A stretch of DNA of 31,073 nt from a virus (taxonomy: Duplodnaviria; Heunggongvirae; Uroviricota; Caudoviricetes): IMG/VR virus record IMGVR_UViG_2602041669_000008. One strand, written 5' to 3'. Shown here piece after piece: positions 28,367 to 31,073 of this stretch. How positions within the stretch are numbered: the first letter of the stretch is position 1; each line of letters opens with the position of its first letter. The notes below the pieces were generated by a model that did not search any database, had not been told where the DNA came from, and was given only the letters and a program-made list of their open reading frames with translations. A program made the position numbers and the translations under genes.

Positions 28367-28383
28367 ATTGCACTAATAATTTT
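28367..28383 (+). promoter_or_regulatory. C1 operator-like site (ATTGCACTAATAATTTT, 15/17) in a divergent promoter region
   Basis: Direct read; a TAGAAT -10-like hexamer follows at about 28421. Confidence 0.5.
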
Positions 28384-28455
28384 CTTTTATTGAGTTAAAT
28401 ATTCAACAAATGACTAGCGGTAGAATCACCATCATCTATTTCTGGCAGGCTGACT

Positions 28456-28833
28456 ATGGCTACATCAATCACTACAACCCAAAGCACCCGGCAATATCCT
28501 CTGTCGCGCTATGACGACCGCAACATAGCCGATCCAATACTCAGGGCAGAGCTACGCAAAGAGGTGATGCTTATGTGTGAATCGAACGACAAGAATCTGA
28601 CGATTTATTACGTTCTTCCCGATGAGCAATATCGCCCGGATTTGCTGGCTTACCGTATGTGGGGCATAGCAGAGCTACGCTGGGTTGTGACGCTCGCCGC
28701 CGGGCTTGAGGATGAGTCTCAGGGTATGACTGTTGGCAAAAAATTAAAACCCCCCCCTGCCACATGGATCCGCGAAATGATTCGCCATTTCCAATATGAC
28801 GGCCAGGTGATAGGGACATTATCCATTGCGTAA
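28456..28833 (+). CDS. Hypothetical protein (125 aa)
   Basis: Track ORF; first gene of the plus-strand operon. Confidence 0.5.
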   Translation: MATSITTTQSTRQYPLSRYDDRNIADPILRAELRKEVMLMCESNDKNLTIYYVLPDEQYRPDLLAYRMWGIAELRWVVTLAAGLEDESQGMTVGKKLKPPPATWIREMIRHFQYDGQVIGTLSIA

Positions 28834-28842
28834 GGGAAATGA

Positions 28843-30060
28843 ATGCCAACTGAATATGCTCGCGACAACCTTGGTCGCTATCAGACTGATGGATTAAGTG
28901 CAAAAGACTTTAATAAGGTCTTCGATCTTATCCGTAAACAGCAGCGTCAGAATCGGCGAAACGCGCGACGTACACTCACCCCAAGGATTATGGGGATGCG
29001 CAACCGCGAACTTGAGGCATTCCTCAGCCTTGGTAAAAAGAAAGATGGCACCTACTTTACGCCAGAAGATATACGCAGCTTCAACACCTCAAGGCAGGCT
29101 CATAAAACAAAATTCAAGAGCACGGTACCCGGCATTACCTATGCTCAGCTGGTGGCGCAGTCCACCAGCATTGATATAAAACGCGCTAACAACAAAGTTT
29201 CTGATGGCACAGGGATCAAAGCCGCGACATTCCTCGGGCTAAAACACAACCTTGCATTGATATCTGTTAATGCCTCGGATGAGTCGGTCCACCAGCATCA
29301 CCGTGTCAGAATTCGATTTGAGGAATGGGATAAAGCCGTTGAGGAAATTGCTGAAGACGGTGCGAAAAAAGCCCGAATCGCTGCCGATCTCTGCAAGGGC
29401 CGGGTATCTTTCGACTGTGATTGTGGACGCCATCAATACTGGTATCGTTATATGGCCACGGCTGGTAACTATGCTGTCGCGCCGCCAAAAGAGTATGCAT
29501 TCCCCAAGATCCGCAACCCTGATCTGACTGGTGTGGCCTGCAAACATGTGTTGCACGCTATGACGCGTTTTCAGTCTCCCACATGGCACAAGGCCATCAT
29601 TATTGCCCTGGAAAAAGCAGCTGAACAGGTAGCCTTCGGCGATGACAAGCGGAAGACAACAACCTATTTCAAAGGCGAACTGGCTAAATCGCTCGCGCGC
29701 AACCGGACAACAACGACGGATCAGGCTAAAGCTGCGCGTGAGTATGAGCTGTATCTGAAATCTCAGGATGCATTAGGCAAAAAACTACGCGCAAAAGATA
29801 GCGCCACGGACAACGTTCGCCGGTTGTTAAAAAAAGCTCGCACCACGGCAAACAGGAAGAATGCCGAACTAAAAGCATCGCGGGTGAGGGAAGCCCAGGC
29901 TCGCGCTGAAGCCGACGCTCTCAAAAAAGCCCTGCAAACGCAGGCGAACAACCTCATAAAGTTTTTCATGAGTCAGGGAATGGACAAGGCCGCTGCCACT
30001 GCGCAGGCGCGAAGCATTCTTGAGACACAAATTAACGAAGCCCGTAAACGGAAAGGATAA
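28843..30060 (+). CDS. Hypothetical basic protein with SWIM-type zinc-finger pattern (405 aa)
   Basis: CDCGRH...x26...CKH (CxCxnCxH); AAGGGA 6 nt upstream of the ATG. Confidence 0.6.
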   Translation: MPTEYARDNLGRYQTDGLSAKDFNKVFDLIRKQQRQNRRNARRTLTPRIMGMRNRELEAFLSLGKKKDGTYFTPEDIRSFNTSRQAHKTKFKSTVPGITYAQLVAQSTSIDIKRANNKVSDGTGIKAATFLGLKHNLALISVNASDESVHQHHRVRIRFEEWDKAVEEIAEDGAKKARIAADLCKGRVSFDCDCGRHQYWYRYMATAGNYAVAPPKEYAFPKIRNPDLTGVACKHVLHAMTRFQSPTWHKAIIIALEKAAEQVAFGDDKRKTTTYFKGELAKSLARNRTTTTDQAKAAREYELYLKSQDALGKKLRAKDSATDNVRRLLKKARTTANRKNAELKASRVREAQARAEADALKKALQTQANNLIKFFMSQGMDKAAATAQARSILETQINEARKRKG

Positions 30061-30063
30061 TCG

Positions 30064-30792
30064 ATGGCTGGTTTCTTTGATGACATGTTTGAGGACACAG
30101 AACCATCACAACAAGTGACTGGTGATAACCTCCCGGACACCGAATCGGATCCGGATATTCCAGGCGAAGGTTCTGAACTGATTGAAGAGGAAGATATTGA
30201 TGCTGAAATCGAAACCGATGGTGTTAACGTTGGTAATATTGTTGATCCTGTGGAGGACAATCACCTTCCCAATCTGGATCACGGCCTGCTTAGTGATTCT
30301 GGTGTGCGCCACCGTTATCAAGGTCATGCAGTTTTTAATAACCTTGTGCGGATGGACTGGCTCAAAGCAATCAAGCTAGACCCTGACTCATTCGATGCGG
30401 TTCTGTATCGCGCAATACCTTACAGAGACAAAAATGCACCTGAAACGGCATCTGAAATAATAGAACCGAACCAACGCATATATGACTATCAGGATCCAGA
30501 ACTGATAACGGCCCTCGACTGCCCGGATGAGATGGACGCCTTCTACGCGCTATACGACGGCAGTGATAATACGGGAATTAGCGACAGTGCTTTAATCCTT
30601 CGGTTGGCCGCCGTTAATGTGCCAGTGGGTTCTATGCTCGAATGGCTGGAACAGCTGTCAGACGGCACAACCATTCGCCGCTTCTGGTACATCCATAAAA
30701 TATTCAATTACGGCACTGCCAGGGTAGGCAGTTTGTTTTATTGCGTGCCTTCACGCGCCTTTGAAGGGAATTTCATCGGTGATTCTGAATAA
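30064..30792 (+). CDS. Hypothetical protein with strongly acidic N-terminal third (242 aa)
   Basis: Track ORF; AAAGGA upstream of the ATG; Asp/Glu-rich N-terminal ~70 residues. Confidence 0.55.
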
Positions 30793-30810
30793 TCAGGAAT
30801 GGCTACTGGC

Positions 30811-31073
30811 TGAACCGCCCCGGAAATCCTGGAGACTAAACTCCCTGAGAAAGAGGTAAACAGGATGACTAAAAATACTCGTTTTTCCCCCGAAGTCCGT
30901 CAGCGGGCGATTCGTATGGTTCTGGAAAGTCAGGATGAATATGACTCACAGTGGGCGGCAATTTGTTCCATTGCCCCAAAGATTGGCTGTACGCCGGAGA
31001 CTCTGCGTGTCTGGGTTCGCCAGCATGAGCGGGATACCGGGGGCGGTGATGGTGGGCTCACCAGCGCTGAACG
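30811..31073 (+). mobile_element. IS3-family insertion sequence, left end and start of orfA (IS629/IS1203-like), truncated by the window edge
   Basis: Terminal TGAACCGCCCCGG... begins 18 bp after the stop of the 242-aa gene; orfA N-terminus [64 protein letters not shown]. Confidence 0.8.
30865..31073 (+). CDS. IS3-family transposase OrfA (HTH part), 3' end outside the window
   Basis: ATG 30865 preceded by GAGG; open to the window end; sequence recognised from memory. Confidence 0.8.

Follow-up and report, generated by a model that had tools for sequence, protein, structure and literature searches.

A truncated copy of the P1 late morphogenetic operon on a p95JB1A-like plasmid prophage

Phage P1 (Punavirus) carries a late morphogenetic operon with the order 26-25-7-24-6-5, and products of this operon have been placed in the virion by cryo-EM. 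In two P1 studies (PMC12810830; bioRxiv 10.1101/2025.07.21.665459), gp26 is a six-fold plug that joins the wedges to the hub, and gp25 appears in neither of the two models. The gp7 protein forms a hexameric stopper ring between the adaptor PmgC and the tail terminator gp24, in a connector whose channel, at about 40 Å, is wider than those of other myophages (PMC12810830). When CsCl-purified P1 virions were analyzed by LC-MS, gp25 was detected with 2 peptides, the same number as gp7, which is present at 6 copies per virion, and gp26, gp5, PmgA, and UpfC were undetected. The gp25 signal was weak, and the authors assigned the protein no role. The GenBank annotation of the P1 record gives genes 25 and 7 a shared 'tail stability' phenotype.

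Here we describe a region at the end of a 31,073-nt stretch of viral DNA (the window). Using the P1 genome (GenBank AF234172, NC_005856) as a reference, we are highly confident that what lies here is the half of the P1 operon nearest its promoter, carried on a p95JB1A-like plasmid prophage. Its features are as follows.

28064 to 28309, minus strand: pmgL (81 aa), the divergent neighbour, at the head of the leftward unit on the far side of the common control region, from the P1 annotation.
28367 to 28383, plus strand: C1 repressor operator O26 (former Op82), monovalent, ATTGCACTAATAATTTT, the same as the annotated site in P1 AF234172.
28408 to 28426, plus strand: late promoter LP26, with a -22 element at 28408-28416 (AAATGACTA) and a -10 element at 28421-28426 (TAGAAT).
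28456 to 28833, plus strand: gene 26, baseplate plug gp26 (T4 gp53-like), 125 aa, from its match to PDB 9ay5/9vzk.
28843 to 30060, plus strand: gene 25, gp25 ('tail stability'), 405 aa, pI 10.1, with a predicted SWIM-like zinc motif in its core and a coiled coil at the C-terminus.
29416 to 29547, plus strand: codons of the SWIM-like motif of gp25, C192-x-C194-x38-C233-K-H235, read from the translation.
30064 to 30792, plus strand: gene 7, head-tail connector stopper gp7, 242 aa, pI 4.07, from its match to PDB 9ums_B.
30064 to 30309, plus strand: acidic extension at the N-terminus of gp7 (roughly residues 1-82), from composition and homologue comparison.
30779 to 30810, plus strand: 5' remnant of gene 24 (tail terminator), with a GTG start, 10 codons, and 2 further nt, from the P1 annotation.
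30811 to 31073, plus strand: IS3-family element of the IS1203/IS629 type, of which the left end lies in the window, identical to the element in p95JB1A.

The region matches P1 genes 26-25-7 with 99.1% nucleotide identity over 2,511 nt. Gene order and sizes are those of P1, the three genes lie at the same relative positions as in the annotated P1 genome, and their products are 0-2 residues apart from their P1 counterparts. Database searches with the region returned 19 phage and 493 plasmid records. With the E. coli plasmid p95JB1A the match extends to the entire window, which corresponds to positions 37747-6675 of the plasmid and shows 2 mismatches to it, the junction between gene 24 and the IS included. 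Both mismatches (28751 and 28755) fall within gene 26. The plasmid record is NZ_CP021336.1, from E. coli strain 95JB1, and a sister record exists as NZ_CP021340.1. The locus is already known: the operon is textbook P1, and the exact IS-truncated copy is in GenBank as p95JB1A.

The original prediction, made from the sequence alone, described three plus-strand open reading frames of 125, 405, and 242 aa in one operon, and these are present; their arrangement as a single plus-strand unit is supported. A fourth gene of the unit had been overlooked, namely gene 24, which is cut by the IS. Its GTG start at 30779 overlaps the end of gene 7, and colinearity with P1 stops at 30810. As had been noted, the IS begins 18 nt past the last intact stop codon: its left end (TGAACCGCCCC...) lies at 30811, downstream of the gene 7 TAA at 30790-30792.

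Because the window ends within the IS, we read the extent of the rearrangement from p95JB1A. There the element is 1,310 bp long, carries a transposase that the annotation assigns to the IS3-like IS1203 family, occurs as a single copy, and has the terminal inverted repeat TGAACCGCCCCGG at both ends. Although a target-site duplication had been proposed as something to look for at the far end, none surrounds the IS in p95JB1A. In the orientation of the window the flanks read ...TGGC / IS / AACA..., and they map to P1 positions 76101 and 66440, which identifies the site as a deletion junction. A simple IS insertion was rejected on these two grounds, the lack of a duplication and the 9.66 kb of missing sequence. 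In place of 9,660 bp of P1 DNA, the plasmid carries the IS; dmt, the tRNA genes, plp, upl, tciABC, ban, dbn, genes 5 and 6, and gene 24 beyond its first 31 nt are deleted. Consistent with this, tblastn searches for gp24, gp6, and gp5 across the entire p95JB1A plasmid found none of them. The suspicion that the IS had truncated the unit was thus correct: gene 24 ends after 10 codons, and the genes for the tail terminator, hub, and spike are lost with the deleted segment.

The 146-nt intergenic region upstream of gene 26 is 100% identical to that of P1, including both annotated sites, O26/Op82 and LP26. An operator-like site had been reported at 28367-28383 in a divergent promoter region; it is there, and its identity to the annotated P1 O26 supports its reading as a P1 C1 operator. 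The site ATTGCACTAATAATTTT has 2 mismatches to the C1 operator consensus. A scan of the whole window with that consensus, allowing at most 3 mismatches, gave 11 matches against a chance expectation of 0.18. Directly 5' of gene 26 lies LP26, an Lpa-type promoter that is 100% identical to the annotated P1 LP26 and whose -22 element is common to the divergent LPpmgL. A simple sigma-70 scan of the intergenic region found no consensus promoter, in agreement with an activator-dependent late promoter, and nothing in a sigma-70 and terminator scan of the wider region exceeded shuffled background. The gene for Lpa is present in the same window (11920-12372, minus strand).

Judged from these elements, expression of the operon is probably better described as late. 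In the P1 annotation, O26 overlaps the predicted leftward promoters P1pmgL (at its -35) and P2pmgL (at its -10). Because O26 is upstream of LP26 and overlaps these leftward promoters, its main target may be pmgL, whose product in the window is 98.8% identical to P1 PmgL. C1 control of rightward transcription comes from the P1 annotation. The original view of a C1-controlled plus-strand operon therefore holds in part: the operator is a P1 C1 site and the genes form one unit, but LP26 would make their expression late and the operator sits over the pmgL promoters. In the prophage state, C1 bound to O26 would silence the divergent region; after induction, Lpa would activate LP26 and the operon would be transcribed late.

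All three proteins match 'tail' families in PHROG. The first, gp26, belongs to PHROG 1269, baseplate wedge subunit (E 9.5e-39), with a weak match to DUF7608 in scans of Pfam, NCBIfam, and PHROG, and is identical to the protein in PDB 9ay5_S and 9vzk ('Gp26') at 124 of 125 residues. The changes at 28751 and 28755 produce an apparent private L99P substitution, which hits a leucine that is nearly invariant among 27 compared sequences.

The third protein, gp7, matches PDB 9ums_B ('Gp7') at 240 of 242 residues (E 1e-164), in a structure that contains Prt, PmgC, and gp7. Its first 70 residues had been described as extremely rich in Asp and Glu, and the count bears this out, with 23 Asp/Glu and no Lys or Arg (25 and none over residues 1-80). 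This acidic segment is present in close P1-like relatives, in which it is poorly conserved. Distant homologues lack it, their sequences beginning around P1 residue 83 or beyond, and the core, approximately residues 83-242, can be aligned across them. By this comparison, the acidic 82-residue N-terminus is a lineage-specific extension.

Between these two structural proteins lies gene 25, whose product is 99.8% identical to P1 gp25 and belongs to PHROG 1722 (E 1.6e-227). Pfam and NCBIfam scans assign gp25 to no family, and searches of PDB chains with its sequence and with two gp25 family profiles gave coiled-coil noise and no relative. The earlier description of a basic 405-aa protein with a CxCxnCxH pattern is accurate: the pI is 10.1, and C192, C194, C233, and H235 of the motif C192-x-C194-x38-C233-x-H235 are invariant in 38 homologues. 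In an AF2 model (pLDDT 84.8), residues 294-404 are helical (approximately 110 residues), and the CKH of the motif opens a helix. As a SWIM zinc finger, the motif has the conserved signature, but PF04434 (SWIM) does not match native gp25 or its fragments, and after deletion of the insert the score reaches 14.4 bits, below the gathering cut-off of 19.6. Pfam likewise found no family at threshold, SWIM (PF04434) included, in 8 distant homologues. The best structural matches, which may point to a SWIM-like fold, are SWIM proteins, namely the ZSWIM8 structure 9rwz and phage proteins in BFVD named 'SWIM-type domain-containing'. We conclude that gp25 contains a conserved SWIM-like motif, predicted to bind zinc, followed by a coiled coil. 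A full-text literature search on SWIM domains in phage tail assembly returned nothing relevant.

The gp25 family comprises 662 representatives at 50% identity. A scan of viral contigs with a P1-like alignment recovered near-identical P1 loci only; a distant-homologue query gave 26 informative loci, in which gp25 is 30-45% identical. Nearly all of these 26 contigs keep the order 26-25-7-24-6-5, and most of them show a 4-nt overlap between genes 25 and 7. The CxCxnCxH motif is found in these loci as well, and the charge pattern of the pair is the same throughout, with a pI of about 10 for gp25 and about 4.1-4.7 for gp7.

The acidic start of the 242-aa protein had been likened to the acidic N-terminal regions of DNA-mimic anti-restriction proteins. 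On this reading, the three genes would make up an anti-restriction or anti-defence cassette in which this N-terminus mimics DNA as Ocr or ArdA does, and the product might travel with the DNA like the P1 Dar proteins. The dense run of Asp and Glu, unbroken by Lys or Arg, and the packaging of anti-restriction proteins by P1 (PMC12810830) would fit such a role. However, this protein is gp7, the stopper of the connector; its position in the virion is solved, and its gene sits within a tail and neck module of conserved order. The acidic segment is moreover missing from distant homologues and poorly kept in close ones. A Pfam scan of gp7 gave nothing at E <= 1, though Pfam covers anti-restriction families. 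A search for paralogy of gp25 or gp7 with Dar or other plasmid proteins also found none, and gp26, gp25, and gp7 are unlike every other open reading frame of the plasmid, the Dar genes included. Homology to structural virion proteins is clear for two of the three proteins, gp26 and gp7, both of which match solved P1 virion structures, and for this reason we rejected the DNA-mimic reading, to which we give almost no credence. An acidic N-terminus by itself predicts a DNA mimic poorly.

The role of gp25 is a different matter. We favor a morphogenetic one, in which gp25 would be an essential partner for the proteins of the neck and of tail completion, acting as an assembly factor or as a low-copy virion component. 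Its SWIM-like zinc domain and coiled coil would form an interaction scaffold that caps the proximal end of the tail with gp7 and gp24. That gp25 is a true low-copy component of the neck or tail lumen or of the DNA end, averaged out by symmetry, and not a transient assembly factor, is possible, though we lean against it. The LC-MS detection of gp25 on a par with the six-copy gp7, when gp26, gp5, PmgA, and UpfC escaped detection, argues for such a component, as do the strongly basic and conserved character of gp25, its long helical region, and the width of the P1 channel. On the other side, neither cryo-EM study assigned it density, and co-purifying assembly factors can yield a weak mass spectrometry signal. 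As a low-copy component, gp25 may gate the wide connector channel together with the acidic tails of gp7. It is very improbable that gp25 instead binds DNA to regulate, for instance, the expression of late or morphogenetic genes. A basic protein with a zinc motif could suggest one, a single distant homologue has a weak C-terminal match to HTH_10 (E 0.032, below threshold), and the annotation of a homologue from a Xanthomonas phage reads 'transcriptional regulator MvaT'. Yet no HTH family reaches threshold in gp25 or its distant homologues, gene 25 is fixed between the plug and stopper genes across distant phages and translationally coupled to gene 7, its annotated P1 phenotype is tail stability, and the protein is detected in virions.

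Returning to the morphogenetic role, we offer a specific and speculative version of it, which is unlikely as a whole. Here gp25 would be the one essential P1 morphogenesis protein that the virion models still lack, a SWIM/coiled-coil neck factor that either helps gp7 and gp24, as a chaperone, onto the proximal end of the tail or stays as a low-copy plug or DNA-end binder in the wide channel, with the poly-acidic tails of gp7 as its electrostatic partner. If true, gp25 would represent an undescribed class of SWIM-domain tail-completion factor, conserved across a large group of P1-like and environmental myophages (662 cluster representatives). The protein is essential, conserved, and syntenic, and its zinc motif and tight coupling to gene 7 provide experimental handles.

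There is little new in the locus overall, and its practical meaning lies in the state of the prophage. With the terminator, hub, and spike genes gone, the prophage would be unable to build tails, and genes 26, 25, and 7 would be relics of a decaying operon. We infer that the IS-bearing plasmid is a defective plasmid prophage. A p95JB1A-type prophage, missing ban and dmt in addition to the terminator, hub, and spike genes, should be left out when inducible or transducing P1-like phages are tallied.

Compared with the P1 operon, which continues through genes 24, 6, and 5, the copy in the window is cut 31 nt into gene 24. Its plug is the T4 gp53-like P1 gp26 in all but L99P. The likeness of gp7 to T7 Ocr, ArdA, and P1 Dar is confined to dense acidic residues in one segment, with no sequence relationship. 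Relative to the stoppers of other tailed phages (the siphophage and myophage analogues cited in PMC12810830), P1-type gp7 adds an acidic N-terminus of about 82 residues, in place of which some distant gp7 homologues have a C-terminal extension. Finally, gp25 shares the CxCxnCxH signature of the SWIM zinc finger (PF04434), invariant across its family, but differs from it in a 38-residue spacer between CxC and CxH that holds a conserved helix and loop, in its fusion to a long C-terminal coiled coil, and in its location within a tail/neck module.

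The three plus-strand open reading frames predicted from the sequence (125, 405 and 242 aa) were found at their expected positions. They correspond to genes that the phage P1 record gives in the order 26, 25, 7, followed by 24, 6 and 5:

28456-28833, +, gene 26 (125 aa), annotated as baseplate in the P1 record
28843-30060, +, gene 25 (405 aa), annotated as tail stability
30064-30792, +, gene 7 (242 aa), annotated as tail stability

Window positions 28300-30810 are 99.1% identical to P1 (AF234172, 76101-78611, minus strand) and match 19 phage and 493 plasmid records. The Escherichia coli 95JB1 plasmid p95JB1A contains the whole window (37747-6675) with two mismatches in 31,073 nt.

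The unit was also predicted to be under C1 control. The operator-like site at 28367-28383 (ATTGCACTAATAATTTT) is two positions off the P1 C1 operator consensus, ATTGCTCTAATAAATTT, and it coincides with an annotated P1 operator. The control elements, divergent neighbors and regulators are as follows:

28367-28383, +, C1 operator O26 (former Op82), monovalent (P1 annotation)
28408-28426, +, late promoter LP26 (P1 annotation), with a -22 element common to the divergent LPpmgL
27483-28061, -, PmgM, divergent neighbor labeled only "putative morphogenetic" in P1
28064-28309, -, PmgL, divergent neighbor of 81 aa with the same P1 label
11920-12372, -, Lpa-like activator (PHROG 1704, E 1.4e-84)
6596-7447, +, C1, annotated as such in p95JB1A

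Over its 146 nt, the intergenic region matches P1 with 100% identity. A simple sigma-70 scan detected no consensus promoter within it, which fits an activator-dependent late promoter. P1 late promoters require Lpa, and both the Lpa-like activator and C1 are encoded inside the window. With up to three mismatches allowed, the window holds 11 C1-operator-like sites (among them 1541, 6021, 9136, 22602, 24694/24743 and 28367), compared to 0.18 expected from shuffles. Such scattered sites make up the C1 regulon that is characteristic of P1. Of the divergent neighbors, PmgM has a below-threshold match to VRR-NUC nucleases (E 3e-4) and is annotated as VRR-NUC in p95JB1A; PmgL has a motif of four cysteines that weakly matches a treble clef (VATC).

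Elsewhere in the window, on the minus strand, Rfam identifies the C4 antisense RNA twice (RF01695; 72 and 76 bits), along with an a1/b1 target element and one isrK-like RNA (1271-1356, 1425-1477, 8871-8958 and 8984-9061). The window thus contains two immI-type c4-icd-ant modules. p95JB1A has three icd/antirepressor modules, of which one is an insertion between pacB and c1. Lambdoid-type accessory genes mapped from its annotation (DUF1382, two ead/Ea22-like genes and DUF551) occupy approximately 18258-21658. On that annotation, the stretch has the look of a mosaic segment inserted into the P1 backbone or replacing part of it.

Two of the three products have known structures. A single residue separates gp26 from PDB chains 9ay5_S and 9vzk ("Gp26"). 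Two independent cryo-EM studies assign its six copies as a T4 gp53-like "plug" that joins the wedge proteins PmgA, gp16 and BplA to the hub, gp6 (PMC12810830; bioRxiv 10.1101/2025.07.21.665459). The sole differences between the window and p95JB1A, T>C at 28751 and A>C at 28755, both lie in gene 26, where they convert CTCCCACC to a run of eight C and replace gp26 Leu99 with Pro. Leu99, part of an ...LP... motif, hardly varies: of 26 other sequences, 25 have L and one has F. A search of viral_contigs and genome_contigs did not recover this exact variant. Either a private mutation in a prophage undergoing decay or an error in the sequence could account for it.

Gp7 differs by two residues from PDB 9ums_B ("Gp7"), a structure that also contains the portal Prt and the adaptor PmgC. 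It is described as a hexameric stopper that caps the adaptor through an N-terminal helix domain and also has a β-sandwich and a long loop docking on the tail terminator, gp24 (PMC12810830). The predicted acidic N-terminus is real: the 242-aa protein has a pI of 4.07, and residues 1-70 include 23 Asp/Glu and no Lys/Arg. Aligning homologues found in 19 viral contigs places the start of the conserved core near P1 residue 83. The acidic segment occurs only in closer P1-like relatives, where it is poorly conserved, and distant homologues lack it entirely. The segment is thus a lineage-specific addition to a structural ring protein, likely disordered given its composition.

The acidic residues had raised the idea of a DNA-mimic anti-restriction protein, which finds no support: gp7 is a virion stopper, its acidic segment is not conserved, and it matched no Pfam family. 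Clear homology to structural virion proteins was also the result named beforehand as refuting that idea. Within the plasmid, no other ORF, the dar genes included, resembles gp7, its residues 1-82 or gp25. Four distant gp7 homologues carry, in place of the acidic N-terminus, a conserved C-terminal extension of approximately 110 residues (…THGKSQWQIR…YFWRVRYRG…WSDWSEET…), possibly a decoration domain acquired by the neck:

L091, 11017-11835
L093, 11227-12051
L095, 11100-11915
L100, 4991-5809

As predicted, an insertion sequence (IS) interrupts the unit. Its left end (TGAACCGCCCC...) lies at 30811, 18 nt past the gene 7 stop (30790-30792). Gene 24 starts at a GTG (30779) overlapping gene 7 and is broken after 10 codons. 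In p95JB1A the element, annotated as IS3-like, IS1203 family, is single copy and 1,310 bp long, with TGAACCGCCCCGG as its terminal repeats. Its other flank corresponds to P1 66440, 29 nt into dmt and directly past hrdC. The ends in p95JB1A show no target-site duplication (...TGGC, IS, AACA... in window orientation), and 9,660 bp of P1 sequence are missing there: dmt, three tRNA genes, plp, upl, tciABC, ban, dbn, 5, 6 and 24. By tblastn, gp24, gp6 and gp5 are absent from the entire plasmid. Having lost its tail terminator, hub and spike, the prophage should be unable to make tails by itself, judging from the roles of these proteins. Only 2 of the 493 plasmid records span the junction, so the event is recent and lineage-specific.

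Gp25 is basic, as predicted (pI 10.1; 79 Lys/Arg versus 44 Asp/Glu), and contains the motif C192-D-C194-x38-C233-K-H235. C192, C194, C233, K234 and H235 are invariant among homologues. A word-indexed search returned 477 homologues of approximately 400 aa, on P1-like plasmid-sized contigs from Enterobacterales and Vibrio; a full profile search gave 662 representatives at 50% identity. The SWIM zinc-finger assignment holds for the motif but not for family membership: the native sequence gives no Pfam SWIM match, and with the conserved insert deleted it scores 14.4 bits, under the 19.6 cut-off. The AF2 model (pLDDT 84.8, pTM 0.73) has an α/β core of three strands, helices, a strand ending at CxC and a helix starting at CKH, followed by approximately 110 residues of long helices. 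We file gp25 as apparently SWIM-like in build, rather than a Pfam-level member. Single-sequence and profile searches found no relative in the PDB.

Across 26 distant viral contigs, with gp25 30-45% identical to the query family, the order gp26-gp25-gp7-(gp24)-gp6-gp5 is kept in nearly all, and in most loci genes 25 and 7 overlap by 4 nt. Throughout, gp25 has a basic pI (9.75-10.4) and gp7 an acidic one (4.05-4.73). The gp25 motif persists in 26/26, often as CCCKH. Plug, gp25, stopper, terminator, hub and spike keep their order far outside the P1 group (environmental contigs L086-L111, 27-94 kb). Among cultured phages, gp25 homologues occur in D6, Acinetobacter vB_AbaM_ABMM1 and Xanthomonas Rb1, among others; the "transcriptional regulator MvaT" label of the Rb1 protein is probably a misannotation. 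Together with the shared "tail stability" annotation, the conserved order, overlap and basic/acidic pairing point to a role for gp25 in completing the tail's proximal end and neck.

Gp25 could act there either as a transient assembly factor or as a low-copy virion component missed in reconstructions. Neither structural paper names it as a virion component (PMC12810830; bioRxiv 10.1101/2025.07.21.665459). Proteomics of purified virions recovered two gp25 peptides, equal to gp7, and its authors could assign no role (PMC9024508). The locus as a whole is not new: its biology is that of P1, and this exact sequence is already on record in p95JB1A.
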